From: a virus | Taxonomy: Duplodnaviria; Heunggongvirae; Uroviricota; Caudoviricetes | Length of the DNA: 19,403 nt | Reading direction: 5' to 3' (one strand) | IMG/VR virus record: IMGVR_UViG_2778261570_000017 | Span: 1-19,403 of that record | In this document: positions 1 to 13,564 of the stretch, one piece after another | Layout: each line of letters opens with the position of its first letter | Position numbering within the stretch: the first letter of the stretch is position 1 | The notes under the pieces: generated by a model | Database searches by the model: none | What the model was told of the DNA's origin: nothing | Seen by the model: only the letters and a program-made list of their open reading frames with translations | Position numbers and translations under genes: made by a program

Positions 1-2
1 TT

Positions 3-65
3 ACAGGTATGGAACGCATTAAGGCAGTACGTGAAATTATTCGTGAACGGGGAAAAGCAAAATGA
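3..65 (+). CDS. 3' end of an upstream CDS (reading frame 3, ...TGMERIKAVREIIRERGKAK*), partial; possibly the primase partner of the downstream Rep
   Basis: Open frame runs in from the window edge and stops at TGA 63-65, overlapping the ATG at 62 (ATGA coupling) of the next gene. Identity not determinable from 21 residues. Confidence 0.4.
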   Translation, partial: TGMERIKAVREIIRERGKAK

Positions 66-1468
66 AACTGGCACCGAACGTAAAACTGTTACCGAAAGAT
101 AAACACACTGAGGCGGTTATTTTTGCGGGTGATAATGCTCACTCCTTTGCAGAACATTACATGATTGCACAGGCCAAAAAAGCAGGCGATCCCATCCCTC
201 CGGTTTACCTGGGCCGTTATCAGTTAAGCGAACTGGACAATTTACAGATTGTTGATGAAGGACGATACAGAGCAAAGGTCATACGCGCCGGAAACCTGGA
301 CGATATGCAGATGCTGACCATTGCCACCAAACTGGCGATCGCAGGTGTCCAGGAAGCACGGTTACTTTCAGAGAATTTCGAACTGCTGGAGGACTGGAGC
401 GAGCAACTACCGCGGCTTAAAGAAACCTGGGAACGCGGGGAAAGTCTGGTCATGAATGGTGGAAAGCGAAAAATCACACTTCCCATCTCATGGGGTTCTG
501 AGGGATTCGACGCGCAGCAAAGCTACGTAATTAAGGGGCTTATTCCGGCTGAGTCATTATGCAGCACCTACGGGGCCAGCGGTTCTTATAAATCGTTCCT
601 GGCTATTTCCTGGTCGTGCCATGTTGTCACAGGTATGGCATGGGGAGGCCGCAGGGTAAGTAAGGGCGCTGTTATCTATATCGCTGGCGAAGGCAGTATG
701 GGCGTAAAACGCCGCGTTAAGGCGTGGGAGATAACCCATGACAAGGTGGTTACGGATTTGTGCATCGTTAACGCGCCTGTTTTCCCTGCATCGCCTGACT
801 ATGTGGAGCAGGTTATCAGGACTGCCGGACTTGTTAAGAGCAGAACGGGCGAAAATGTGCGGCTGATTGTGATCGACACGCTGGCCCGTTGCTTTGGTGG
901 GAATGATGAAAATGATTCCCGTGATATGGGCGCATTTATCCAGGGGTGTGACGCGATAAAGCAGGCCACAGGGGCCACGGTACTGGTGGTTCACCATTCC
1001 GGCAAGGATGAAACAAAGGGGGCGCGAGGTTCCAGCGCATTCCGCGCTGCACTGGATGCAGAGTACCGAATCAGCCGGGAAAATTCAGACGTTACAGCAC
1101 TGGTGGCGGCGTGTACGAAGATGAAGGACGCAGAGGAGCCAAAAGAGAGTGCATACGATCTTAAAAGCGTGGAGGTGTTCACCGATACAGATGGCGAAGA
1201 GATTGTGTCCATGGTGGTGATTGACGTTCCCCGCGCCCCTGCTGAACTGGAGCGCATAGAGGAGGCCGGGAACAAGACGGAAAATCACACGGCTTTATGG
1301 GGTTGTATCCGGTCGCGTATACAGCATGGTGATAAATGTACGATCCCGCTGCTACGTGATGACATGAAAAAGCTGGGATATGACACAAAACACCTTAAAC
1401 GATGGTTAGCCAAACTGGAAAAAGACGGCGTGATTTGCGTCGATGGGGATGATGTTCACCCACTGTAA
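62..1468 (+). CDS. Replication ATPase/helicase, RecA-fold (RepA/AAA_25-like)
   Basis: 468-aa ORF with Walker A-like YGASGSYKS, Walker B-like hydrophobic stretch ending in Asp (RLIVIDTLARCF) and VLVVHHSGKD. Coupled to the upstream ORF and followed immediately by an iteron array. Confidence 0.6.
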   Translation: MKLAPNVKLLPKDKHTEAVIFAGDNAHSFAEHYMIAQAKKAGDPIPPVYLGRYQLSELDNLQIVDEGRYRAKVIRAGNLDDMQMLTIATKLAIAGVQEARLLSENFELLEDWSEQLPRLKETWERGESLVMNGGKRKITLPISWGSEGFDAQQSYVIKGLIPAESLCSTYGASGSYKSFLAISWSCHVVTGMAWGGRRVSKGAVIYIAGEGSMGVKRRVKAWEITHDKVVTDLCIVNAPVFPASPDYVEQVIRTAGLVKSRTGENVRLIVIDTLARCFGGNDENDSRDMGAFIQGCDAIKQATGATVLVVHHSGKDETKGARGSSAFRAALDAEYRISRENSDVTALVAACTKMKDAEEPKESAYDLKSVEVFTDTDGEEIVSMVVIDVPRAPAELERIEEAGNKTENHTALWGCIRSRIQHGDKCTIPLLRDDMKKLGYDTKHLKRWLAKLEKDGVICVDGDDVHPL

Positions 1469-1670
1469 AAAGTGGGCGTTAAAAGTGGGAATAGTGGGTA
1501 ATTTAACTGGAATTTAACAAAATCGCCCACTTTCCCACGTGTATACATCCCAAAAAGTGGGCACTAAAAAAATACTTATGAAACAGTACGATATAAAACC
1601 ACAAAATCCCTGGTGGGACGAAGTGGGAAACCATGAAAAGTGGGCAGAAAAAGTGGGCACAGGTGGGCGC
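1468..1670. repeat. Iteron array, (A)AGTGGG(C/A) repeated about 10 times; candidate replication origin
   Basis: AGTGGG at 1471, 1484, 1493, 1556, 1622, 1639, 1652; GGTGGG at 1612 and 1662; inverted copy CCCACT at 1526-1531. Lies directly 3' of the Rep gene. Confidence 0.6.
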
Positions 1671-1922
1671 ATGACAAGAAAAACCAGAGATAAGACAGCA
1701 CCAAAATATAAAGCGTTAGACATGACAGAGCACGCCTTAAAGGTGGCAATCAGAACGATAGACCGCCACGCCGGAGAAGGATACGCGAAAGCACATCCCG
1801 AACTGATAAGCGCATTCATGACCACGGCGGCGGCAAATTTTGCCACGCTGACAGAGCGGGAGATTGCCGAAGCGGAACAGGTGACAACCATCAACGTTAA
1901 AACCGGAGAACAGACAGCATGA
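1671..1922 (+). CDS. Small hypothetical protein (about 84 aa)
   Basis: The ORF track starts at 1539, but the N-terminal 44 codons are translated iteron repeats. The ATG at 1671 follows GGTGGGCGC. Stop TGA 1920-1922 overlaps the ATG of the next gene at 1919 (ATGA). Confidence 0.45.
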   Translation: MTRKTRDKTAPKYKALDMTEHALKVAIRTIDRHAGEGYAKAHPELISAFMTTAAANFATLTEREIAEAEQVTTINVKTGEQTA

Positions 1923-2341
1923 CAGCACAGATAGCGGCTTACGGGCGGCTGGTGGCTGACCCGCAGTTAAAGACCACCAGCAAGGGGACACAAATGGCGA
2001 TGGCGAGTATGGCGGTTCCCCTGCCGTGCAGCCAGGCAGATGACGGAACGGCGACGATGTGGTTATCCGTCCTGGCGTTTGGCAGACAGGCCGACGCACT
2101 GGCCAGACACCACAAAGGCGAACTGGTGAGCGTGGCGGGTAACATGCAGGTAAGCCAGTGGACAGGCCAGAACGGCGAAACGCGGCAGGGCTGGCAGGTT
2201 ATCGCAGACAGCGTAATCAGTGCGCGAACGGCGCGACCGGGCGGCAAAAAAGGTCAACAGGGCCAGGCTACTGACGCGCTGAACAGGGCAAAACAACAGG
2301 CGGGAAATGATGATCCGTACGGGGATAACATACCGTTTTAA
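1919..2341 (+). CDS. ssb: Single-stranded DNA-binding protein (SSB)
   Basis: 140 aa, OB-fold-like N-terminal region, Gly/Gln-rich linker and acidic C-terminal tail ...DDPYGDNIPF, matching the canonical SSB C-terminus D-D-D-I-P-F. Confidence 0.8.
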   Translation: MTAQIAAYGRLVADPQLKTTSKGTQMAMASMAVPLPCSQADDGTATMWLSVLAFGRQADALARHHKGELVSVAGNMQVSQWTGQNGETRQGWQVIADSVISARTARPGGKKGQQGQATDALNRAKQQAGNDDPYGDNIPF

Positions 2342-2358
2342 GAAACGAGTGACAGAAG

Positions 2359-2380
2359 CCGGGATTTTTCCCGGTTTTTT
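2359..2380 (+). terminator. Rho-independent terminator-like hairpin after ssb
   Basis: CCGGGA (2359-2364) / TCCCGG (2369-2374), 4-nt loop, followed by TTTTTT (2375-2380). Confidence 0.6.
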
Positions 2381-2455
2381 ACGGGTCCTCCCGGTGGAGT
2401 GGCCTTGCCACGGGGCGGGAGCGTCGCGGAAAACGGCTGATTTTTGAATTTTCAT
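2378..2455 (+). other. cos-like site copy 1 (cosQ-like TTTACGGGTCCT, 35-nt spacer, cosN-like 12-mer GGGCGGGAGCGT at 2413-2424)
   Basis: Recalled lambda cos junction is TTTACGGGTCCTTTCCGGTGATCCGACAGGTTACG|GGGCGGCGACCT|CGCGGG. Here the first 12 nt match exactly, the 35-nt distance to the GC-rich 12-mer is the same, and the ACG / CGCGG flanks match. Repeated at 4898-4978. Confidence 0.6.
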
Positions 2456-2609
2456 GGGACACCACCACATCAATTAACATGTTGAAAAATAAAATAAAAA
2501 TTGATTTTCACCTGTCCAATTTTGCTTTTTGTGGGACATCTGACCAGTTTGCAATTAATTGAAATATATAAATAAATCAGTTTTTCACCTGCCTGGTGGA
2601 GTTGCCTGT
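2456..2609. repeat. Two degenerate tandem units of about 77 bp, AT-rich, each with GGGACA..., a CAAT..ATTG-type palindrome and TTTTCACCTG(T/C)C
   Basis: Unit A 2456-2532, unit B 2533-2609. GGGACAcc at 2456 and GGGACAtc at 2533. TTTTCACCTGTCC 2505-2517 and TTTTCACCTGCC 2582-2593. Palindromes CAATTAACATGTTG 2471-2484 and CAATTAATTG 2552-2561. Confidence 0.5.
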
Positions 2610-2641
2610 ATCAAAACGTGTTCAGATGGCGGGATATTTAT

Positions 2642-2664
2642 GCCGGATTTTTTCCGGCTTTTTT
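2642..2664 (+). terminator. Rho-independent terminator-like hairpin
   Basis: GCCGGA (2642-2647) / TCCGGC (2653-2658), followed by TTTTTT (2659-2664). Nearly the same hairpin as at 2359-2380. Confidence 0.55.
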
Positions 2665-2765
2665 GCGTCTGAATCTGATTAATCTATTTTTATGATAGAA
2701 ATATGTTTATCTACCACTTTTATCGATCAATAATGATGCCCGTTAATCAAAACGGAGGCGGATTT

Positions 2766-2960
2766 ATGCCAGAGAACAACACCAGAAAGCCGGGTAAAAG
2801 TGCCACTGTGCACATAGACACCGGAACGATGGAGAAGATCGAACGCTATCAGCAGTTCATCAAAGAGAATCACCCGGGTATGCCAGTACCCACGAAAGGA
2901 CAAATCACACGCAGCGCGGTTGAATACTGGTACAAGGCAACGTTAGGAGCCTGGCTATGA
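2766..2960 (+). CDS. Small protein (about 64 aa), possible ribbon-helix-helix DNA-binding fold
   Basis: GGAGG at 2754-2758 lies 7 nt before the ATG at 2766; the ORF-track start at 2703 has no RBS. Predicted strand-helix-helix pattern (ATVHID / TMEKIERYQQFIKEN / GQITRSAVEYWYKA). Stop TGA 2958-2960 overlaps the ATG at 2957 of the capsid gene. Confidence 0.45.
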   Translation: MPENNTRKPGKSATVHIDTGTMEKIERYQQFIKENHPGMPVPTKGQITRSAVEYWYKATLGAWL

Positions 2961-4873
2961 AAACATGGTTTTCCATTAAGGCGGCGGATGTGCGTGGAAC
3001 GGTGGAAATATCCATCTATGAAGAAATTGGCGGCTTCGGTATTACCGCGAAGCAGTTCTCGGAAGATCTGAAAGCCCTTGGCGATGTTTCACATATCGAC
3101 CTACGGATCCATTCGCCTGGCGGTGACGTGTTTGAAGGCATCGCCATCTATAACCTGCTACGGAATCATCCGGCAGACATTACGGTTTATATCGATGGCG
3201 TGGCGGCTTCAATGGCTTCGGTCGTCGCAATGGCTGGCGATCGCGTTGTTATGCCGGAGAACGCCATGATGATGATCCATAAGCCGTGGGGGATCTCTGG
3301 CGGAAATGCTGGCGATATGCGTGATTATGCTGATTTGCTGGATAAAGTGGAAACCGTGTTAATCCCTGCTTATGCCAGAAAAACAGGCAAATCAGCACAG
3401 GAAATTGCCGCCATGCTGGAAGATGAAACCTGGATGGACGGGAAAGAATGCCTTAAGCACGGTTTTGCTGATGAATTGTTGCCATCTGTCAGAGCAATGG
3501 CGCGAATTGAATCGAAACGCACAGGAGATTTTTTACATATGCCGGAAACCATTAAGGGAATGATTACCCCGCCGAAATCACAGGCAAAAAACACCATTAC
3601 AGGCGACCAGGAGCGCATTAACGGCATTAAAGAAATTTTTAGCGTGTTCGGCAACCAGTACGACGGGATCAAAATGTCGTGCCTTGAAGATGCATCCTGT
3701 ACGCTGGAAATGGCCCGGGAACGTCTGCTTAACGAAATGGGTAAAAACCACACACCAACAAATAAAAATATCCCGTCTCATATTTATGCCGGAAACGGGA
3801 ACATAACAGGCGATGCGATTCGCCAGGGCCTTTATTCCCGTCTTGGGTATGAGCGTCCTGAGCGTGGCAATCCTTACGCGATGATGAGTCTTTTTGAAAT
3901 GGCCCAGGCGTCACTGGTTGATCGTGGTATCAGTGTTGGCGGTTTTTTAAATCGCTCGCAGGTCGTTAATGCAGCTTTTACACACAGCAGCAGTGATTTT
4001 TCTCATATTCTGGCTGGCGGTGCTGAAAAATCAGTGCTGAAAGGCTGGCAGGACAGCGGCGAAACGTTCCAGAAGTGGACGCGTAGCGGATCGCTTTCAA
4101 ACTTTCACGAGGCAAAACGCGTTGGCCTGAATGGTTTTTCAAAACTGGATAAAGTGCCGGAAGGCGCGGAATATAAATACATTACTACCAGTGACAAGGG
4201 CGTACCTATTGCGCTGGCCACATACGGGAATATTTTTTCTGTTACCCGCCAGGCCATTATTAACGATGACCTGACCCAGTTAACTACAATCCCCATGGCG
4301 ATGGGGCGTGCAGCCGCCAGAACAGTAGGTAATCTGGTGTATCTCCTGTTAACCGGCAATGGCAAATTCACGGATGGTAAGGCGCTATTCCATGCCGATC
4401 ATAAAAATCTTATTGCGAAGGATATGGACATGGAGGGGCTTAACGAAGCCCGTAAGCTGATGCGCCTCCAGGAGGACGCTAACGGTGATTCGCTGAATAT
4501 TACCCCCGCATTTGTCCTGGTCCCCGCCGCGCTGGAGTCTGCCGCACATCGCGCCATTCTGTCATCGTCATCACTCTTTCAGGTTGATGGTGAGGGCACT
4601 ATCAATCAGAACCCCGGCATCATTAACGTGGTGAAAGATATGGCTGAGGTTATTGTTGAGCCACGTCTTGATAAGAACAATAACAAGGAGTGGTATGTAG
4701 CCGCAGCGAAAGGGATGGACACGATAGAGGTCGCTTATCTTGATGGTATTGATACGCCATATCTTGAGGAGCAGGAGGGCTTTACTGTTGATGGTGTCGC
4801 CTGGAAGGTGCGCATAGATGCAGGTGTTGCGGCCCTCGATTATCGTGGACTACTGAAATCGAGTGGAGCATGA
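2957..4873 (+). CDS. Prohead protease (ClpP/S14-like) fused to HK97-fold major capsid protein, copy 1
   Basis: 638 aa. N-terminal about 190 aa carries protease motifs (HSPGGDVFEG, DGVAASMAS, MMIHKPWG); the C-terminal region is colinear and homologous along its full length with the second copy at 8636-10696. AGGAG RBS at 2944-2948. Confidence 0.85.
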   Translation: MKTWFSIKAADVRGTVEISIYEEIGGFGITAKQFSEDLKALGDVSHIDLRIHSPGGDVFEGIAIYNLLRNHPADITVYIDGVAASMASVVAMAGDRVVMPENAMMMIHKPWGISGGNAGDMRDYADLLDKVETVLIPAYARKTGKSAQEIAAMLEDETWMDGKECLKHGFADELLPSVRAMARIESKRTGDFLHMPETIKGMITPPKSQAKNTITGDQERINGIKEIFSVFGNQYDGIKMSCLEDASCTLEMARERLLNEMGKNHTPTNKNIPSHIYAGNGNITGDAIRQGLYSRLGYERPERGNPYAMMSLFEMAQASLVDRGISVGGFLNRSQVVNAAFTHSSSDFSHILAGGAEKSVLKGWQDSGETFQKWTRSGSLSNFHEAKRVGLNGFSKLDKVPEGAEYKYITTSDKGVPIALATYGNIFSVTRQAIINDDLTQLTTIPMAMGRAAARTVGNLVYLLLTGNGKFTDGKALFHADHKNLIAKDMDMEGLNEARKLMRLQEDANGDSLNITPAFVLVPAALESAAHRAILSSSSLFQVDGEGTINQNPGIINVVKDMAEVIVEPRLDKNNNKEWYVAAAKGMDTIEVAYLDGIDTPYLEEQEGFTVDGVAWKVRIDAGVAALDYRGLLKSSGA

Positions 4874-4880
4874 CAACAAG

Positions 4881-4903
4881 GGCGGCGATAGCCGCCTTTT
4901 TTT
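4881..4903 (+). terminator. Rho-independent terminator-like hairpin after capsid copy 1
   Basis: GGCGGC (4881-4886), loop GATA, GCCGCC (4891-4896), then TTTTTTT (4897-4903). Confidence 0.6.
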
Positions 4904-4978
4904 ACGGGTCCTCCCGGTGGAGTGGCCTTGCCACGGGGCGGGAGCGGCGCGGAAAAAGGCTAGTTTTTGCATTTTCAT
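4898..4978 (+). other. cos-like site copy 2 (cosQ-like TTTACGGGTCCT at 4901-4912, cosN-like GGGCGGGAGCGG at 4936-4947)
   Basis: Direct repeat of 2378-2455 with about 5 mismatches. Sits where lambda cos sits, roughly 190 bp upstream of the Nu1-like TerS start. Confidence 0.65.
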
Positions 4979-5132
4979 TCATCATCATCATCTTTTCAAT
5001 GCATTGAATTTAAACGAATTTTATTTTTAGTATGTTAATTTTGCGTGTTTTTTGGTCAACATATAACGCACTTTATAACGCTTTTTGAGAAGGTGTTCGC
5101 AAGATGCATGTTTAAAACATTCTGGAGCGGGT
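4979..5132. promoter_or_regulatory. cosB-like AT-rich region between cosN-like site and TerS (candidate TerS/IHF binding sites)
   Basis: Perfect palindrome CAATGCATTG at 4997-5006, about 50 bp after the cosN-like 12-mer (the same family of palindrome sits 47 and 128 bp after the cos copy 1 12-mer). Also tandem ATAACGC and near-palindrome ATGTTTAAAACAT. Confidence 0.4.
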
Positions 5133-5618
5133 ATGGATCGAGAACTGAAAAATCTGATGCTGAACATTAACCAACTGGCGGCGATAGCGGGAATATGTCG
5201 TCAGACTGCGGCGGCAAGGCTGAAAAACATCCAGCCAGCCGGAGGACATGACAAGCTGAAACTCTATCGGGTGACTGACATTCTGACCTGTTTTCTTGAT
5301 CTTCCCGTTCCGGCATCACTGGAAGAAATGGAGCCACATGACCGTAAGGCCTGGTATCAGTCTGAACGTGAGCGCCTCAAGTTCGAACAGGAAACGGCGC
5401 AACTCATACCCGCCGATGATGTGCGAAAAGAGATGGCTATATGGGCGGAAATCGTAAGCGAGGAACTGGCAAAACTCCCCAGTATTCTGGCACGTGATGC
5501 GGGGCTTAAACCGATGGCAGTAAACAGAGTGCAGTCAATTATTGACGATTTGTGTAATCAGATTATCAGCCGGATGGTAAAAAATGACGCAGTGAATGAG
5601 GATGTAAAACAGGCATGA
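5133..5618 (+). CDS. Terminase small subunit (lambda Nu1-like)
   Basis: GGAG 5 nt upstream of the ATG at 5133. N-terminal LNINQLAAIAGICRQTAAARL resembles the Nu1 winged-HTH region (recalled lambda Nu1 MEVNKKQLADIFGASIRTIQNW). Position immediately downstream of cos. Confidence 0.7.
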   Translation: MDRELKNLMLNINQLAAIAGICRQTAAARLKNIQPAGGHDKLKLYRVTDILTCFLDLPVPASLEEMEPHDRKAWYQSERERLKFEQETAQLIPADDVRKEMAIWAEIVSEELAKLPSILARDAGLKPMAVNRVQSIIDDLCNQIISRMVKNDAVNEDVKQA

Positions 5619-5864
5619 TAATGACTGGCGCCGTGATCCCCCGTGCTACCGGAATCAGACTACCAGAAGGCAAACAGAAGACCACGCAGTCGGGCAGCGT
5701 CATCGTGTTAATGCATGGCGGCGTATTCTGCTTTTAATTAATATTGCTACCTTTTTTCTTTTTTTATCGCTTAGGCAGGTACTAAATCTTGGACTATGTG
5801 AATGGGGTTACAACTAAATAGTACCTTATAATCATTTAGTTACCTTTTATTTACTTCTTCCTGG

Positions 5865-6977
5865 ATGGAAGGCCCCGCTGCGGCATATCAGACGCTGTCC
5901 CAGCTGGTCTATAAGTTGCTGACCGCCGAACAGGAATACGAGTCGACCGGAAGCGAAGAAACGCTCAAGACAGTCATCAACACCGACTGGGGATTACCTT
6001 ATCTTCCCCGGGCCAGCATGGAGCAACGAAAAAGCGAACTGCTTGAGCAGCGGGCAGAGCCTGTTCCTCCCCGAAGTGTGCCGGATGGCGTTAATTTCCT
6101 TGCGGCGACAGTGGATGTGCAGGCGGGACGTCATCGCCGTTTTGTGGTTCAGGTAACGGGCTATGGCAGTCGTGGCGAACGCTGGATAGTTGATCGTTAC
6201 AACATCACGCAGTCGCTGCGTTGTGACAATAACGGAGAAAGCCTGCGTATTGACCCTGCCGGTTATCCGGAGGACTGGGATGTTCTGCTGACGGATGTTT
6301 TTCATAAAGGCTGGCCGCTGGCTTCTGATCCTTCTCAACAAATGCGACTGATGGCAATGGCGGTGGACTCCGGCGGTGAAGACGGGGTCACTGATAATGC
6401 CTATAAATTCTGGCGTCGTTGCCGTCGTGATGGCCTTGGTAAACGTATTTACCTGTTTAAGGGCGACAGTATCCGTCGCGCAAAACTGATAACCCGTACA
6501 TTTCCGGATAACACCGGACGAACGGGGCGACGGGCGCAGGCTTCGGGTGATGTTCCACTCTGGCTCCTTCAGACGGATGCCCTGAAAGACCGGGTGAATA
6601 ACGCGTTATGGCGTGACTCGCCAGGTCCCGGCTATGTGCATTTTCCTGACTGGCTGGGGAGCTGGTTTTACGACGAACTGACGTATGAAGAGCGGAGCAG
6701 TGACGGAAAGTGGAGTAAGCCGGGTCGCGGTGCCAACGAAGCCTTTGACCTGATGGTGTATGCCGAGGCGCTGGTTATTCTGCATGGGTACGAGAAAATT
6801 CAGTGGCCGGATGCGCCGGAATGGGCATGCAGGGAAACCTGGCTGGAATACGTCAGTGACAACGCTGAGCAGGCTGTTCTGCCGGAACCAGTCTCTCTGC
6901 CTGCCAGAAAAAAGAAACGAAAAAAAGTGACGCCCGATGAGGATAACCCCTGGGTGACTTCCGGAGGATGGTTATGA
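5865..6977 (+). CDS. Terminase large subunit (lambda gpA-like), C-terminal nuclease domain only; N-terminally truncated, possibly a pseudogene
   Basis: 370 aa, colinear with roughly the C-terminal half of lambda gpA as recalled (ATVDVQAGRHRRFVVQVTGYGSRGERWIVDR vs AGIDSQLDRYEMRVWGWGPGEESWLIDR; ANEAFDLMVYAEAL vs RNEALDCFVYALAA). No Walker A segment, and only 246 bp lie between TerS and this ORF. No clear RBS. Confidence 0.75.
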   Translation: MEGPAAAYQTLSQLVYKLLTAEQEYESTGSEETLKTVINTDWGLPYLPRASMEQRKSELLEQRAEPVPPRSVPDGVNFLAATVDVQAGRHRRFVVQVTGYGSRGERWIVDRYNITQSLRCDNNGESLRIDPAGYPEDWDVLLTDVFHKGWPLASDPSQQMRLMAMAVDSGGEDGVTDNAYKFWRRCRRDGLGKRIYLFKGDSIRRAKLITRTFPDNTGRTGRRAQASGDVPLWLLQTDALKDRVNNALWRDSPGPGYVHFPDWLGSWFYDELTYEERSSDGKWSKPGRGANEAFDLMVYAEALVILHGYEKIQWPDAPEWACRETWLEYVSDNAEQAVLPEPVSLPARKKKRKKVTPDEDNPWVTSGGWL

Positions 6978-7186
6978 ATCAGAATGATATTGAAGCCATG
7001 ATCCAGCGTTATATCGATGCGGAAATGGCAGTGCTGGACGGAAAATCCGTCACCTTTAATGGTCAGCAAATGACCATGGAAAATCTGTCCGAGATCCGCC
7101 GGGGACGTCAGGAGTGGGAGCGGCGTCTTGCTGCCCTGACTGCGCGGCGACGGGGGAACCCGGGATATAAACTGGTGAGGTTCTGA
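6974..7186 (+). CDS. Head-tail joining protein (lambda gpW-like)
   Basis: About 70 aa. ATG 6974 overlaps the TerL stop (ATGA); stop overlaps the portal ATG at 7186 (TGATG). C-terminus ...RRRGNPGYKLVRF resembles lambda W ...RRRGPAGFYV. Confidence 0.6.
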   Translation: MNQNDIEAMIQRYIDAEMAVLDGKSVTFNGQQMTMENLSEIRRGRQEWERRLAALTARRRGNPGYKLVRF

Positions 7187-8691
7187 TGGCAATTCTGGAT
7201 GATGTGATTGGTGTTTTTTCTCCAGGCTGGAAAGCGGCGAGGTTGCGCTCAAGAGCGTTAATCCGCGCTTATGAGGCTGTGAAACCCACACGCACACACA
7301 AAGCCCGACGGGAAAACCGTTCTGCCGACCAGCTCAGTAAGTACGGGGCGGTTTCCCTGCGGGAGCAGGCCCGTTTTCTGGATATCAATCATGACCTCGT
7401 AATCGGCGTTTTCGACAAGCTTGAGGAGCGGGTGATTGGTGCAAAGGGGATCATTGTTGAACCCCAGCCATTACTGAAAAACGGTGGTGTGGCTACAGAG
7501 CTGGCAATGATTATCCGTCGTTTGTGGGCGGAATGGTCTGTCAGTCCGGATGTGACCGGGCAGCATACGCGCCCCATGCTCGAACGTCTGCTGTTGCGTA
7601 CCTGGTTACGTGATGGAGAAGTGTTTGCCCAGATGGTCAGAGGCGCAGGTGCCGGGCTGGCACGGACTGCCGGTGTGCCTTTCTGGCTTGAGGCAATGGA
7701 GCCTGATTTTGTGCCCATGCTCAGTGATGAGTCTGCGGGAATGAATCAGGGAGTTTTTCTGGATAAATGGGGCAGGCCGAAAAAATACCTGGTTTATAAA
7801 AATTATCCGGTTCCCGGGCGACAGAGCGAAACCAAAGAGATCGCCGCTGAAAATATGGTGCATCTGAAGTTTACCCGCCGGCTGCACCAGACGCGTGGTA
7901 CATCCATGTTGTCGGGTGTGCTGATACGGATCAGTGCACTTAAGGAGTACGAGGATTCTGAGTTGGTTGCAGCGCGTGTTGCTGCGGCTCTGGGGTTATA
8001 TATTCGTAAAGGAGATGGACAGGATTATGAGGAACCTGTGACAAATAAAGATAATGATCGGGAACTGCATATCACTCCCGGCATTATTTATGACGATCTG
8101 CGTAAGGGGGAAGATATTGGCATGGTCAAATCTGATCGGCCTAACCCTAATCTGGAAACTTTTCGTAATGGTCAGTTGCGGGCTATGGCGGCGGGCACTC
8201 GTCTGAGCTTTTCCAGTGCAGCACGTAACTATAACGGTACCTACAGTTCCCAGCGACAGGAGCTGGTTGAGTCCACCGATGGCTATCTGATCCTGCAGGA
8301 CTGTTTTATTGGTGCTGTAACCCGTCCGGTGTACCGGGCATGGCTGAATATGGTGATTGCCGCGGGGTTGCTGAAAATTCCGTCGGATGTGGATATGAAA
8401 ACGTTATATAACGCAACATATTCTGGCCCTGTGATGCCGTGGATCGACCCAGTCAAGGAGGCTGAAGCCTGGAAAATTCAGATCCGGGGTGGTGCGGCGA
8501 CAGAATCAGACTGGGTGCGCGCCAGTGGTCGTAATCCGGATGACGTCAAACGTCGGCGCAAAGCTGAGATTGATGAAAACCGCAGGCTGGAACTGGTATT
8601 TGATACCGATCCGGCAAGTGATAAAGGAGGTGGTAATGCTGAAACAGAACGCGTGGTTCCGCGGCGAACCGAAGGCCAGCCTGAAGAATAA
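7186..8691 (+). CDS. Portal protein
   Basis: 501 aa, in the canonical position between W and the protease-capsid gene and translationally coupled to W. Confidence 0.7.
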   Translation: MAILDDVIGVFSPGWKAARLRSRALIRAYEAVKPTRTHKARRENRSADQLSKYGAVSLREQARFLDINHDLVIGVFDKLEERVIGAKGIIVEPQPLLKNGGVATELAMIIRRLWAEWSVSPDVTGQHTRPMLERLLLRTWLRDGEVFAQMVRGAGAGLARTAGVPFWLEAMEPDFVPMLSDESAGMNQGVFLDKWGRPKKYLVYKNYPVPGRQSETKEIAAENMVHLKFTRRLHQTRGTSMLSGVLIRISALKEYEDSELVAARVAAALGLYIRKGDGQDYEEPVTNKDNDRELHITPGIIYDDLRKGEDIGMVKSDRPNPNLETFRNGQLRAMAAGTRLSFSSAARNYNGTYSSQRQELVESTDGYLILQDCFIGAVTRPVYRAWLNMVIAAGLLKIPSDVDMKTLYNATYSGPVMPWIDPVKEAEAWKIQIRGGAATESDWVRASGRNPDDVKRRRKAEIDENRRLELVFDTDPASDKGGGNAETERVVPRRTEGQPEE

Positions 8692-10696
8692 TTCCTGGTT
8701 CAGAATGAAGGCGGGTCATAAAAGTGATGCGGATATTTATATCTATGACGAGATTGGTTTTTGGGGTGTTACGGCGAAACAGTTTGTCAGTGATCTGAAT
8801 GCGCTGGGCAATATTACCCACATTAATCTCCATATCAATTCACCGGGTGGCGATGTCTTTGAAGGCATCGCCATTTTTAATGCGCTGAAAAATCACGGAG
8901 CGTCCATCACTGTTTATGTGGATGGCGTTGCCGCATCCATGGCATCGGTCATTGCAATGGTGGGGGATCCCGTCATCATGCCGGAAAATGCATTCATGAT
9001 GATACATAAACCATGGGGAGTGAGTGGTGGCGATGCGGATGATATGCGCGATTATGCTGACCTGCTTGATAAAGTTGAGGCGGTCCTGTTGCCTGCTTAT
9101 GCGCAAAAAACCGGAAAAACGACAGATGAAATTGCTGCCATGCTGAAAGATGAAACCTGGATGTCCGGAGCTGAATGTCTGGCACACGGATTTGCTGACC
9201 AGGTGACACCGAAAGTTAAGGCAATGGCATGCATTCAGTCAAAACGAACAGAGGAATTTAAAAAAATGCCAGAATCCATCCGAAATATGATTATTCCGCC
9301 ACGCAACAGTGCAACGCGTGAACCTGAAAACAAAAATACTGCATCTCAGACACAGGAGCAGACTACGGCTCAGGTTGTCACAACCGCGACCATTGCGAAT
9401 GCGTCTTCCGCAGATGAAAGCAGTATCCGTGCACAGGTGCTGGCTGAGCAAAAAGCACGCGTGAGTGGTATTAATGACCTGTTTGGTATGTTTGGCGGGC
9501 GTTATCAGACATTGCAGGCCAGTTGCCTTTCCGATCCGGAGTGCTCGCTTGAGCAGGCCCGTGAGAAATTACTTAACGAAATGGGTAAGGAATTTTCACC
9601 ATCAAATAAAAACACCCCGTCCCATATTTATGCCGGCAACGGTAATTTTGTGGGAGACGGGATCCGACAGGCGCTGATGGCGCGCGCCGGATTTGCTGAG
9701 CGTGAGCAGGATAACGTCTATAACGGGATGACCCTGCGTGAATATGCCCGAATGTCACTGACAGAGCGTGGTATTGGGGTTTCCGGGTATAACCCGATGC
9801 AGATGGTGGGGGCAGCGTTCACCCACAGCACGTCTGACTTCGGTAATATTCTGTTAGATGTTGCGAACAAAGCCATTCTGCAGGGCTGGGAAGAAGCGCC
9901 TGAAACCTACGAACAGTGGACCCGAAAAGGTCAGCTGTCTGATTTTAAAATCGCTCATCGTGTGGGTATGGGGGGCTTCAGTTCTCTGCGTCAGGTGCGT
10001 GAGGGGGCGGAATATAAGTACGTCACCACCGGAGATAAACAGGCCACGATTGCACTGGCGACCTATGGCGAACTGTTCAGCATCACCCGCCAGGCCATTA
10101 TCAACGATGATCTGAATATGCTGACCGATGTTCCGATGAAACTGGGGCGTGCGGCGAAATCCACGATTGCCGATCTGGTTTATGCCATTCTGACATCTAA
10201 CCCGAAAATCTCCACGGATAATGTGAGCCTGTTCGATAAAGCGAAACATGCAAACGTACTGGAGAGCGCAGCAATGGACGTGGCATCGCTGGATAAAGCC
10301 CGCCAGTTGATGCGCGTTCAGAAAGAAGGTGAGCGTCATCTGAATATTCGCCCTGCGTTCGTACTGGTACCGACGGCGATGGAGTCTGTTGCTAACCAGG
10401 TTATTCGCTCCTCAAGTGTCAAGGGGGCTGACATTAACGCCGGTATTATTAACCCGGTGAAAGATTTTGCGACCGTTATTGCAGAGCCGCGCCTTGATGA
10501 TAACAGCCAGACCACCTTTTATCTGGCTGCGGCGAAAGGTACGGATACCATCGAAGTGGCTTATCTCAATGGGGTGGATACGCCATATATTGATCAGATG
10601 GAGGGCTTCAGCGTGGACGGCGTGACAACGAAAGTGCGTATTGACGCCGGTGTTGCACCAGTTGATCACCGCGGTCTGGTGAAATGTACGGCGTAA
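8636..10696 (+). CDS. Prohead protease (ClpP/S14-like) fused to HK97-fold major capsid protein, copy 2 (canonical head position)
   Basis: Strong RBS AAGGAGGTGG at 8624-8633 before the ATG at 8636; the ORF-track start at 8489 lies inside the portal gene. Same architecture as copy 1, plus a T/Q/A-rich low-complexity insertion of about 45 aa. Confidence 0.85.
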   Translation: MLKQNAWFRGEPKASLKNNSWFRMKAGHKSDADIYIYDEIGFWGVTAKQFVSDLNALGNITHINLHINSPGGDVFEGIAIFNALKNHGASITVYVDGVAASMASVIAMVGDPVIMPENAFMMIHKPWGVSGGDADDMRDYADLLDKVEAVLLPAYAQKTGKTTDEIAAMLKDETWMSGAECLAHGFADQVTPKVKAMACIQSKRTEEFKKMPESIRNMIIPPRNSATREPENKNTASQTQEQTTAQVVTTATIANASSADESSIRAQVLAEQKARVSGINDLFGMFGGRYQTLQASCLSDPECSLEQAREKLLNEMGKEFSPSNKNTPSHIYAGNGNFVGDGIRQALMARAGFAEREQDNVYNGMTLREYARMSLTERGIGVSGYNPMQMVGAAFTHSTSDFGNILLDVANKAILQGWEEAPETYEQWTRKGQLSDFKIAHRVGMGGFSSLRQVREGAEYKYVTTGDKQATIALATYGELFSITRQAIINDDLNMLTDVPMKLGRAAKSTIADLVYAILTSNPKISTDNVSLFDKAKHANVLESAAMDVASLDKARQLMRVQKEGERHLNIRPAFVLVPTAMESVANQVIRSSSVKGADINAGIINPVKDFATVIAEPRLDDNSQTTFYLAAAKGTDTIEVAYLNGVDTPYIDQMEGFSVDGVTTKVRIDAGVAPVDHRGLVKCTA

Positions 10697-10719
10697 ACGT
10701 CGCAGACAACAACGCTGAT

Positions 10720-10772
10720 GGCCCGTAAGGGCTTTTTTTGTACCTGAAATCAGCCCCGTTCAGGGGGCTTTG
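10720..10772 (+). terminator. Two consecutive hairpins after capsid copy 2 (attenuator/terminator-like)
   Basis: GCCC-GTAA-GGGC followed by TTTTTTT (10720-10739), then AGCCCC / GGGGCT hairpin (10752-10769). Confidence 0.45.
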
Positions 10773-10783
10773 CGGAGGCAGTT

Positions 10784-11107
10784 ATGGCAAAGAATTTTGT
10801 GGAAGACGGGAAAACGGTGGAGATTGTCGCTGGCGCAAATATCAGTAGCGGAGAGCTGGTACAGGTGGGCGATATTTTTGCTGTGGCACTGACCGATATT
10901 GCAAAAGGCGAAATTGGGGACGGCATGACTGAAGGTGTATTTATGCTGCCGAAACTGAAAACGGATGATATGAAAACCGGTAAGAAGGTTTATCTGAAGT
11001 CCGGAAAAGTTCAGCTGACTAACAGCGGCTCTGATCCGCTGGTCGGGGTTGTCTGGGCAGATGCCGGAACCAGTGCAGAAGAAGTGCCGGTAAAACTCAA
11101 TGTCTGA
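10784..11107 (+). CDS. Small head protein, DUF2190-like (possible decoration or head-completion protein)
   Basis: 107 aa, GGAGG at 10774-10778, located directly after the major capsid gene. Family assignment is from recollection. Confidence 0.45.
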   Translation: MAKNFVEDGKTVEIVAGANISSGELVQVGDIFAVALTDIAKGEIGDGMTEGVFMLPKLKTDDMKTGKKVYLKSGKVQLTNSGSDPLVGVVWADAGTSAEEVPVKLNV

Positions 11108-11375
11108 TCCCTTTTCCCGGCTGGCAGCGCGTATGGATGCTATCACGGTCAGAAAGATGGGAAAGACAGCCTCGATTAATGATGTCGATATGACCGTGAT
11201 CCCGGGAGAAACACTGGCAGAGCTGAATGCTCTGTCCGGACCTGCGGTCTCTCTGGTTGTGTTTTCTTCGGGATACCGCCCACGGCGCGGGGATCGCGTT
11301 GTTTATGACGGACAACAATGGACGGTCACACGGCATGAACGCTTTAACGGTAAGCCAATGATCTTTATTGAGTAA
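11100..11375 (+). CDS. Head-tail connector / head completion protein (lambda gpFII-like)
   Basis: 91 aa. ATG overlaps the preceding stop. C-terminal RRGDRVVYDGQQWTVTRHE resembles lambda FII RRGDTLTIGEENFWVDRVS. Confidence 0.5.
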   Translation: MSDPFSRLAARMDAITVRKMGKTASINDVDMTVIPGETLAELNALSGPAVSLVVFSSGYRPRRGDRVVYDGQQWTVTRHERFNGKPMIFIE

Positions 11376-11386
11376 AGAGGTGTGGG

Positions 11387-11965
11387 ATGAAGGGGCTTGA
11401 GAATGCCATCCGCAATCTGAACAGCCTTGATACCCGTATGGTGCCACAGGCCAGCGCATGGGCGATAAACCGTGTGGCACAGAAAGCGGTCTCGGTTGCC
11501 ACCCGGCAGGTTGCCGGGAATACCGTTGCGGGAGATAACCAGGTGAAAGGGATCCCCCTGAAACTGGTACGTCAGCGTGTCCGGGTGTTTAAAGCCAGTC
11601 CGTCAGGAAAAATGACGGCCAGGATCCGCGTTAACCGGGGCAATCTGCCCGCCATTAAGCTGGGAACAGCCCGGGTCAGACTGGCCCGGCGTGGTGGAAA
11701 ACTGCAGTACCGTGGCAGTGTGCTGAAGGTGGGTAAATATCTTTTCCGGGATGCGTTTATTCAGCAACTGGCGAATGGTCGCTGGCATGTGATGCGGCGT
11801 ATTGATGGCAAAAATCGTTACCCCATTGATGTGGTGAAAATCCCGCTGTCCGGACCGCTGACACAGGCATTTGAAGATGCCCGCGACCGCATCATTGCTG
11901 CGGAAATGCCGAAACAGCTGGGGTATGCACTGAAACAACAACTGAGGTTATGGCTGACCCGATGA
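11387..11965 (+). CDS. Tail completion protein (lambda gpZ-like)
   Basis: 192 aa, the same length as lambda Z; position between FII-like and U; RBS AGAGGTG upstream. Confidence 0.6.
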   Translation: MKGLENAIRNLNSLDTRMVPQASAWAINRVAQKAVSVATRQVAGNTVAGDNQVKGIPLKLVRQRVRVFKASPSGKMTARIRVNRGNLPAIKLGTARVRLARRGGKLQYRGSVLKVGKYLFRDAFIQQLANGRWHVMRRIDGKNRYPIDVVKIPLSGPLTQAFEDARDRIIAAEMPKQLGYALKQQLRLWLTR

Positions 11966-12363
11966 ACCGACATACACAAATCCGCCAGGCCGTACTGGCA
12001 CGCCTTCGGGAACAGTGTGGAGACAGCGCCACGTTTTTTGACGGGCTTCCGGCATTTATTGATGCGCAGGAACTGCCTGCCGTGGCGGTGTGGCTGAGTG
12101 ATGCTCAGTACACCGGAAAAATGACGGATGAAGATGACTGGCAGGCTGTTCTGCATATTGCCGTCTTCATCCGGGCACAGGCACCGGATTCAGAGCTGGA
12201 TATGTGGATGGAGAGCACCATTTTTCCTGCCCTGAATGATATACCGGCACTTTCCGGACTCATCGACACCCTGATCCCACTCGGTTTTAACTATCAACGT
12301 GATAATGAGATGGCCACCTGGGCGATGGCGGAAATCACGTACCAGATCACGTACACGAATTAA
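11962..12363 (+). CDS. Tail terminator protein (lambda gpU-like)
   Basis: Strong similarity to recalled lambda U (TFFDGLPAFIDAQELPAVAVWLSDAQYTGKMTDEDDWQAVLHIAVF vs TFFDGRPAVFDEADFPAVAVYLTGAEYTGEELDSDTWQAELHIEVF). ATG 11962 overlaps the Z stop (ATGA); the alternative ATG at 11950 is less likely. Confidence 0.85.
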   Translation: MNRHTQIRQAVLARLREQCGDSATFFDGLPAFIDAQELPAVAVWLSDAQYTGKMTDEDDWQAVLHIAVFIRAQAPDSELDMWMESTIFPALNDIPALSGLIDTLIPLGFNYQRDNEMATWAMAEITYQITYTN

Positions 12364-12373
12364 GGAGGTGGCA

Positions 12374-13117
12374 ATGACCACACCAAATCCACTGGCAAAG
12401 ACGAAAGGTGCGGGGACGACGTTCTGGATGTATACCGGCAACGGCGATGCGTTTGCGAACCCTTTGTCGGACACTGACTGGCTGCGTCTTGCGATGGTGA
12501 AGGATCTGCAGCCTGGCGAAATGACCGCTGATGCAGAAGATGACACTTATCTCGATGATGAAGATGCAGACTGGAAAACGACAACCCAGGGGCAGAAATC
12601 CGTCGGTGATACTTCGGCGACGCTGGCCTGGCGTCCGGGTGACAGCGGGCAGAAAAAACTGGTTCAGTTGTTCGACTCCGGTGAAGTCTGCGCGTTTCGT
12701 ATCAAATATCCCAACGGCACTGTTGATGTTTTCCGCGGCTGGCTGAGCTCACTGGGTAAAACCATTGCCTCAAAAGACGTGATGACCCGCACTGTGAAAA
12801 TCAGCGGTGTGGGGCGTCCGTATCTGGCAGAGGAAGGCACTGAAACCGTGAGCGTTACCGGGCTGACGGTGGCACCGGCATCTGCCAGTGTAAAAGTGGG
12901 AGCAACCACCACGCTGACCTTTACAGTAAAACCTGACGGAGCCAGTGACAAAGCGATCAGTGTGCATTCGACAGATCCACAGACTGCCACGGTGACCCTG
13001 AACGGGCTTGTGGCCACGGTGAAAGGCGTGAAGCAGGGCAGTGTCAGCATTGTGGGCATGACTTCTGACGGCGATTTTGTGGCCGTGGCTGCGGTGGCTG
13101 TCAGCGCCGCAGGTTAA
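12374..13117 (+). CDS. Major tail protein (lambda gpV-like) with C-terminal Ig-like domain
   Basis: RBS AAGGAGGTG before the ATG at 12374. N-terminus MTTPNPLAKTKGAGTTFWMYTGNGDAFANPLSD matches lambda V [33 protein letters not shown]. The ORF-track start at 12299 lies inside U. Confidence 0.9.
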   Translation: MTTPNPLAKTKGAGTTFWMYTGNGDAFANPLSDTDWLRLAMVKDLQPGEMTADAEDDTYLDDEDADWKTTTQGQKSVGDTSATLAWRPGDSGQKKLVQLFDSGEVCAFRIKYPNGTVDVFRGWLSSLGKTIASKDVMTRTVKISGVGRPYLAEEGTETVSVTGLTVAPASASVKVGATTTLTFTVKPDGASDKAISVHSTDPQTATVTLNGLVATVKGVKQGSVSIVGMTSDGDFVAVAAVAVSAAG

Positions 13118-13137
13118 CAGGACGATACTCATCATTT

Positions 13138-13161
13138 GCCCCGGTTATCCGGGGCTTTTTT
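13138..13161 (+). terminator. Strong hairpin plus T-run between V and G (terminator/attenuator)
   Basis: GCCCCGG (13138-13144), loop TTAT, CCGGGGC (13149-13155), then TTTTTT (13156-13161). Confidence 0.65.
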
Positions 13162-13177
13162 GCAAGTGGAGAACATG

Positions 13178-13564
13178 ATGTTTCTGAAACAGGGCACGTT
13201 TAATTATGAAAAGCAGTCCGTGGTGCTCAGTGAGCTGTCCGGGCTGCAGAGAATTGAATATCTGGCGTTTGTTCAGCAGCGAACGGCAAAGTTTGATGCC
13301 GGGGAGGGAGAACTGCCGGAGGCTGAACGACAGATTGCTTTTCTGCGGATGGGGATGGATATCAATGCCTGGCTGGTTTCCCGCTCACTGTGGAATGCGG
13401 ATCAGTCTAAGGATGTAGAGACGCTTTGCGCATCCGTTATTACAACATGGTCGTATGATGCCCTGGGTGCGGGGGCGGAGATGGTTCTGTCGCTGAGCGG
13501 TATGGGGGCCATTGATAATGCCGGGGATGATGAGCATGAGGTGCTGACGCCGGAAAAGTCCTGA
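13178..13564 (+). CDS. Tail assembly chaperone (lambda gpG-like)
   Basis: MFLKQGTFNYEKQSVVLSELSGLQRIEYLAF resembles lambda G MFLKTESFEHNGVTVTLSELSALQRIEHLAL. GGAG 6 nt before the ATG at 13178. The ORF-track start at 13136 runs through the terminator hairpin. Confidence 0.85.
   Translation: MFLKQGTFNYEKQSVVLSELSGLQRIEYLAFVQQRTAKFDAGEGELPEAERQIAFLRMGMDINAWLVSRSLWNADQSKDVETLCASVITTWSYDALGAGAEMVLSLSGMGAIDNAGDDEHEVLTPEKS

Follow-up and report, generated by a model that had tools for sequence, protein, structure and literature searches.

In 2023, Tommasini, Mageeney and Williams described helper-embedded phage-inducible chromosomal islands (HE-PICIs), satellites that reside in, and are co-oriented with, the late genes of a lambdoid helper (PMC10111431). 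In experiments with the founding member, Eco567.11capE from E. coli NRG857c (hereafter 11capE), excision of the satellite follows the composite's excision and replication, and embedding was proposed to delay the expression of the interrupted late gene; particles could not be recovered (PMC10111431). The accompanying survey kept integrases scoring at least 400 bits against the 11capE integrase, which fall into a single clade, and reported 14 late-gene sites, those in terL being A:Terminase_1:132 and :245/246; in the attP of these elements, the motif TGTATTGC occurs doubled near -81 and +132 (PMC10111431). Here we analyse a stretch of 19,403 nucleotides, the tailed phage record IMGVR_UViG_2778261570_000017 of IMG/VR, which is referred to in its full length as the window. 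Our subject is the segment 5619-6977, where terL, the gene for the large terminase subunit, appears without its 5′-part. The comparisons presented below make it very probable that this segment represents the right attachment site (attR) of a PICI-type satellite, which its integrase inserted into the terL gene of a lambdoid prophage, at the point where the ATPase domain gives way to the nuclease domain.

The two halves of the terminase gene

The open reading frame (ORF) at 5865-6977 on the plus strand encodes 370 amino acids, and its sole Pfam match is GpA_nuclease (residues 1-314, profile positions 6-294 of 294, E 2e-81); an ATPase domain is missing in the Pfam search. By comparison, TerL of an uninterrupted relative comprises 700 amino acids with GpA_ATPase at residues 41-304 and GpA_nuclease at residues 326-644, so that the ORF corresponds to residues 331-700, the C-terminal half, and not to a complete small TerL. 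Between the stop codon of the small terminase gene (TerS, DUF1441) at 5618 and the ATG at 5865 lie 246 bp, too few to encode an ATPase, and no ATPase-coding sequence was found elsewhere in the window. The segment 5738-5864 has a GC content of 30.7%, compared with 52.4% window-wide, and no more than 0.6% of 127-bp windows are as poor in GC. Moreover, there is no Shine-Dalgarno sequence upstream of the ATG at 5865, and a scan of positions 4800-6100 did not reveal promoter-like sites on the plus strand. A previous sequence-only reading of this DNA had been right in noting the nuclease half, the short gap, its AT-richness and the lack of a good ribosome-binding site. It had taken them to suggest a deletion or replacement scar in terL, in an element that is either a defective prophage or dependent on a helper ATPase. 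The data below point to an insertion instead.

The window is an entire short-read contig (NLMT01000085.1 of assembly GCA_002228995.1), the left edge of which falls inside a DUF4222 gene of the satellite (window 1-102), probably because related PICI sequence is present elsewhere in the genome. As the contig begins within the satellite, the left attachment site (attL) is invisible in the window. A sister contig from a second isolate, L005, overcomes this restriction: window 1-11468 corresponds to L005 6220-17687 with 99.97% identity, and L005 reaches 6.2 kb further to the left, covering the integrase gene, attL and the N-terminal half of TerL. Its gene order is TerS, TerL 1-331, attL, integrase, helix-turn-helix (HTH) protein, Bro-N, DUF4222 and helicase. 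The N-terminal half of TerL comprises 331 amino acids with a complete GpA_ATPase domain and the Walker A motif GPARTGKT, and ends with ...RIASFWM followed by TAG. It is separated by 160 bp of non-coding DNA from the gene for a tyrosine integrase of 412 amino acids with Arm-DNA-bind_3 and Phage_integrase domains. The full island measures 10,334 bp from core to core, and the window holds its right-hand 5.86 kb (1-5860, plus strand, as defined by alignment to the sister contig). Integrase, HTH protein, helicase, capsid protein and TerS are all encoded on the same strand as terL, i.e. the island is co-oriented with the late operon.

Joining the two halves of TerL in silico yields an uninterrupted ORF of 700 amino acids. 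It differs by 4 nucleotides and 3 amino acids from TerL of an uninterrupted prophage in E. coli PSS-15, which matches window 5862-13300 at 99.95% and the sequence left of attL at 99.66% identity. As the joined halves sum exactly to the intact gene across the 10,334-bp island, the ATPase domain was never deleted. Downstream of terL, a small gene of 70 amino acids and the portal gene (Phage_portal_2) follow at 6974-8691 on the plus strand, in the same order as in the uninterrupted prophage. The composites in the complete genomes of SCU-125, KSC64 and O157:H7 3-5-1 show the same layout in different prophages and at different chromosomal sites, and in every composite examined the ATPase half is found about 10.3 kb upstream. 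In the SCU-125 and L089/L090 composites, the Prokaryotic Genome Annotation Pipeline (PGAP) of RefSeq calls the terL halves separate pseudogenes, labelled 'missing C-terminus' and 'terminase gpA endonuclease subunit, missing N-terminus', which are not linked across the island.

Attachment sites and recurrence of the insertion

Comparison of attL, attR and the empty site delimits a core of 7 bp, CTGGATG, at 5861-5867 on the plus strand, the last three bases of which form the TerL codon Met331. The attL sequence reads cattCTGGATGtagg (longer form gcgtcattCTGGATGtagggtac; junction string gcgtcattCTGGATGtagggtacattt), attR reads cttcCTGGATGgaag (longer form tttacttcttcCTGGATGgaaggcc) with the core at the window positions given above, and the empty site in the uninterrupted terL of PSS-15 reads cattTTGGATGgaag (longer form gcgtcattTTGGATGgaaggcc). 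The O157 composite carries TTGGATG in both attL and attR, and since this variant is present at both ends, the 7-bp YTGGATG behaves as the crossover region. Directly after the core, the P′ arm provides the TAG stop codon, so that the upstream half of TerL ends with ...SFWM*. The ATG at 5865 is, as the alignment indicates, the native internal Met331 codon of TerL; because it is an internal codon without a ribosome-binding site, there is no support for the stand-alone nuclease that the sequence-only reading had contemplated.

The AT-rich segment corresponds, by alignment with the satellites of KSC64 and O157 at their right ends, to the conserved P arm of the satellite attP (5735-5860, plus strand). 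Window 5735-5869 (135 bp) is 90% identical to these right ends, and the adjoining DNA differs. Within the arm, a doubled motif GGTACTA-N6-GGACTA (5778-5796, plus strand) is a candidate binding site for the arm domain of the integrase. In the reconstructed attP, the doubled GG(T)ACTA is positioned at -86/-73 from the centre of the core, a co-oriented pair at +133/+145, and TTATCGCTT at -100 and +109. A doubled GGACTA adjoining the integrase gene is conserved in every family member examined, at integrase identities of 41-100%. Its GGACTA-N6-GGACTA form is located 20-60 bp upstream of the integrase start codon (L005 1882-1899), also in a chromosomal member from Pectobacterium. What had been taken for a scar thus is the P arm, which contributes candidate arm-type sites to attP; the integrase is predicted to bind there.

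Two further features of the gap that had been put forward were re-examined. A 38-codon ORF (5615/5621-5737, plus strand) does overlap the TerS stop codon, as had been stated. It had been considered a remnant of the 5′-end of terL; this was rejected, since it has no similarity to the N-terminus of TerL and the search for 5621-5737 returned no Pfam or PHROG match. It lies in a variable stretch of the satellite and is probably not a gene. This stretch between TerS and the P arm measures 110 bp in the window and in SCU-125 and about 520 bp in KSC64 and O157, where it holds a phrog_1561 gene of 93 amino acids that starts at the same ATGA overlap. The 8-bp inverted repeat AACTAAAT...ATTTAGTT exists within the P arm (5812-5819 and 5834-5841), shifted rightwards by one base relative to the positions assigned to it before. 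However, such repeats arise in 6.5% of shuffles of the AT-rich segment, and the left arm AACTAAAT reads AACTCAAT in related elements and hence is not conserved. The repeat was therefore not accepted as a structure with a meaning of its own.

Of 5426 complete E. coli genomes, 64 carry the attL junction, among them strains of O157:H7, O111 and O121; it also occurs in 20 IMG/VR contigs. In Salmonella, an element whose integrase is 75% identical has the same core and the junction ...agtttCTGGATGtagggtac in a diverged TerL, and a Klebsiella element with a 55%-identical integrase splits a GpA of the lambda type within a few codons of this position, at ...HIWSAY|. As the insertion recurs in diverged prophages, in several serotypes and in Salmonella, it reflects repeated site-specific integration rather than a single accident.

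We sampled ten relatives of the integrase, nine of which (41-96% identity) are encoded directly downstream of, and co-oriented with, phage late genes. The gene upstream is GpA TerL in three further E. coli, Salmonella and Klebsiella lineages: at the same site in O157:H7 3-5-1 (P0001, about 96% identity) and in Salmonella (P0004, 75%), and in the Klebsiella element mentioned above (P0020). In a second Salmonella element (P0009, 63%) it is a portal gene (Phage_portal_2) followed by a gene for a protease-like protein of 484 amino acids. The remaining E. coli members follow a truncated phrog_1072 gene located after a tail-completion gene (P0014, 59%), a DUF2213 protease (P0042, 50%), a Terminase_2 TerS (P0035, 49%) and DUF6651 (P0117, 41%), and a Pantoea member follows Phage_portal_3 (P0060, 45%). 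The tenth relative, from Pectobacterium (P0085, 41%), occupies a chromosomal site and has the same doubled GGACTA motif. In a rough neighbor-joining tree without support values, covering the eleven lineages for which the genomic context is known, the embedded members group together, the chromosomal one falls into a clade of its own, and 11capE branches off as a distant outgroup. Late-gene targeting thus is likely to be of independent origin in this integrase family. An integrase scan of species-representative genomes returned relatives of at most 41% identity, with no TerL, TerS, capsid or helicase matches nearby.

Satellite genes, proposed cycle and rival explanations

The island encodes, in this order, the integrase, the HTH protein, Bro-N, DUF4222, a RepA-like helicase, a single-stranded DNA-binding protein (SSB) and a fusion of prohead protease and capsid protein, followed by cos and TerS; all features of this paragraph lie on the plus strand. 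The helicase gene (62-1468; Pfam AAA_25, E 2e-42), the SCU-125 copy of which is annotated 'helicase RepA family protein', represents the replication zone together with the SSB gene (1919-2341; Pfam SSB, E 9e-16). The fusion of a ClpP-like prohead protease and a major capsid protein (2957-4873, 638 amino acids; Pfam CLP_protease and Phage_capsid_4) is 56% identical in amino acid sequence to the fusion protein of the helper at 8636-10696 (686 amino acids), and the satellite may assemble capsids of its own, possibly differing in size. A cos-like block of about 75 bp occurs twice in the satellite, as copy A at 2375-2455 and as copy B at 4898-4978, just ahead of TerS; the copies are near-identical to each other and to a block that precedes the helper TerS, and we take them to resemble the cosN region of lambda. 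The records of phages cdtI and Tritos begin at the equivalent of window 2413 in copy A, and that of mEp460_4F5 at the equivalent of window 4931 in copy B. Both copies have the same orientation and flank the capsid gene, and after each comes a stretch that ranks among the most AT-rich in the window. This duplication may mark how the capsid module was captured.

The small terminase gene of the satellite is located at 5133-5618 (DUF1441, E 6e-36; the longest ORF starts from a TTG at 5085) and matches PHROG 141, terminase small subunit (E 2e-58). Its product is 75% identical to the helper TerS (L005 269-760), the first 45 residues being near-identical and the C-terminal tail diverging. The C-terminal region of the lambda counterpart Nu1 contacts TerL. 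Satellite copies with the same integrase and attachment site vary in their cargo: the O157 and KSC64 copies have a primase in place of the RepA-like helicase, the DUF1441 TerS is not annotated in the O157 copy, and in the KSC64 satellite (L090 23489-24189) a partial tail gene and a tail-assembly gene are found between capsid and TerS.

By analogy with 11capE, the integrated satellite would leave the helper without a complete terminase. Upon induction, helper replication and late transcription would run into the satellite, and the integrase together with the small HTH protein would excise it. Precise excision is predicted to rebuild the intact 700-aa TerL. The satellite would then replicate by means of its own helicase and SSB, and the helper TerL would package it from the satellite cos and TerS, with the protease-capsid protein supplied by the satellite and the portal and tail by the helper. 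We further raise, as a speculation to which we assign little weight, that the ATPase-only TerL of 331 amino acids, which would be produced ahead of excision by translational coupling to the helper TerS, might titrate the helper TerS or poison the helper terminase, and that the satellite TerS, with its conserved DNA-binding N-terminus and divergent tail, could steer the restored TerL to the satellite cos; given an integrase clade that came to target late genes independently, helper embedding would then represent a convergent, active takeover of packaging and not only a timing switch.

Three other explanations have to be weighed against the insertion of a satellite. Loss of the 5′-half of terL in a defective prophage that requires an ATPase in trans would account for the AT-rich junction and for the window being devoid of ATPase-coding sequence when considered on its own. 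However, an intact ATPase half lies 10.3 kb upstream, both in the 99.97%-identical contig and in all composites examined, the 7-bp core is duplicated at both ends of an integrase-bearing island, and the two halves add up exactly to the intact gene; we therefore consider such a deletion highly improbable. Still less credible is an artefact of assembly, or capture of the island by homologous recombination via the duplicated TerS and cos. The short-read contig does break inside the island, and window 4900-5563 shares 83% identity with the corresponding cos-TerS region in the uninterrupted prophage. However, the identical junction is present in several closed genomes, and the crossover took place at the 7-bp core in terL, without flanking homology and 1 kb away from the helper TerS. 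The sequence-only reading had itself named an assembly error as an alternative, which the closed genomes contradict. In the same way its suggestion of satellite-like behaviour can be divided: a satellite is involved and the gap is a junction with foreign DNA, yet the satellite is window 1-5860 and the prophage, which it had regarded as defective or satellite-like, retains both halves of TerL in the sister contig and is the presumed helper.

The insertion may also be a dead end, i.e. the island no longer excises productively or never did, the prophage is crippled for good and the composite is inherited only vertically. Several observations speak for this possibility. The attP junction string has no matches in viral_contigs and metagenome_contigs, and no free phage or satellite record holding the element was found, the matches of phage records being confined to its cos and TerS portions; in addition, the particles of 11capE could not be recovered (PMC10111431). 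The negative searches for the attP junction and for phage records also count against our interpretation of the locus, as do three further points: the assembly of the window itself does not show the left half of the composite, as the contig ends in the satellite; the 67-aa HTH protein beside the integrase matches HTH_17 only below the Pfam threshold; and a pair of cos copies at a distance of 2.5 kb does not sit easily with simple cos-to-cos packaging. Conversely, integrase, HTH protein, both attachment sites and both halves of TerL are intact and show no decay, the joined terL being 4 nucleotides away from the empty-site allele, the same prophage is found both empty and island-bearing with identities above 99.6%, and the recurrence of the junction across diverged prophages, serotypes and Salmonella argues for repeated integration. 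A dead end thus appears unlikely, albeit less so than a deletion scar or an artefact, and insertion of a PICI-type satellite that may leave terL again remains the reading that we favour.

Significance and comparison with known satellites

The main interest of these findings, which we consider moderate, concerns prophage annotation and satellite biology. Late genes that look split or 'truncated' in prophages of enterobacteria, among them the prophages of O157:H7 and other Shiga toxin-producing E. coli, can be reversible satellite insertions and not decay, and the pseudogene labels given by PGAP to both terL halves bear on the question of which prophages are to be called defective. Moreover, helper embedding extends past the surveyed clade, as ten of the eleven sampled lineages (E. 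coli, Salmonella, Klebsiella, Pantoea) are located in late operons. Since TerL is the packaging motor, the site offers a clean system to ask whether a satellite can gate the packaging of helper DNA.

Excisable elements that split genes and act as developmental switches are exemplified by skin in sigK of B. subtilis and by phi10403S in comK of Listeria. The island shares with them that a site-specific element divides a coding sequence and that precise excision rebuilds the gene when it is needed. However, the interrupted gene here belongs to a helper phage, and the interrupter is the parasite of that phage. A literature search for the Sakai prophage-like elements (SpLE) of O157 or for interrupted terminases retrieved nothing relevant.

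The chromosomal PICIs of Gram-negative bacteria and the satellite P4, the P4-family integrases of which use tRNA, fis or hpt sites, resemble the element in their Arm-DNA-bind_3 and Phage_integrase integrase, and have Bro-N, Icd-like and DUF4222 genes as well as a replication module in common with it. In contrast to these elements, the island resides in a late gene of a prophage and not in a chromosomal gene, and an immunity RNA of the P4 CI/C4 type was not detected in the whole composite at the Rfam gathering thresholds. With the capsid-forming PICIs (cf-PICIs) it shares an HK97-type capsid protein, a prohead protease and a small terminase of its own. However, only the protease-capsid fusion and TerS are present, with no TerL, portal or head-tail connectors, and because none of these is encoded between attL and attR, the satellite must borrow TerL, portal, connectors and tail from the helper.

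The closest likeness is to the HE-PICIs. The island splits terL at a 7-bp core with a short identity block at the attachment sites, and the empty site is found in PSS-15. The four zones Integration (integrase with AlpA/HTH_17), Bro, Replication and Late follow each other in the expected order, the HTH_17 match being sub-threshold. With 11capE it shares the order of integrase, small HTH protein, Bro, Icd-like protein, DUF4222, replication protein, SSB and captured late genes, and the spacing of the arm motifs (about -81/+132 as published, -86/+133 here) is similar. It differs in several respects. The integrase is 25% identical to that of 11capE and scores 85.5 bits, below the cutoff of 400, and all relatives tested score at most 90 bits. 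The motif TGTATTGC has no match in L005, and 11capE has doubled TGTATTGC where this family has GGACTA. The replication zone of this copy holds a RepA-like helicase and not a primase, and the late zone consists of the protease-capsid fusion, TerS and cos. Finally, the island targets a TerL of the GpA type where the ATPase and nuclease domains meet, whereas Terminase_1 proteins hold the published terL sites; 'GpA' and the junction strings of this island are absent among the attL/attR supplement entries listed (PMC10111431). Taken together, the element is, as judged from its gene arrangement, an HE-PICI by embedding, co-orientation and zone order, and lies outside the published group in integrase clade, arm motif and site. 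HE-PICIs as a kind have been known since 2023; what is new here is the other integrase family, the arm motif and an unreported target site.

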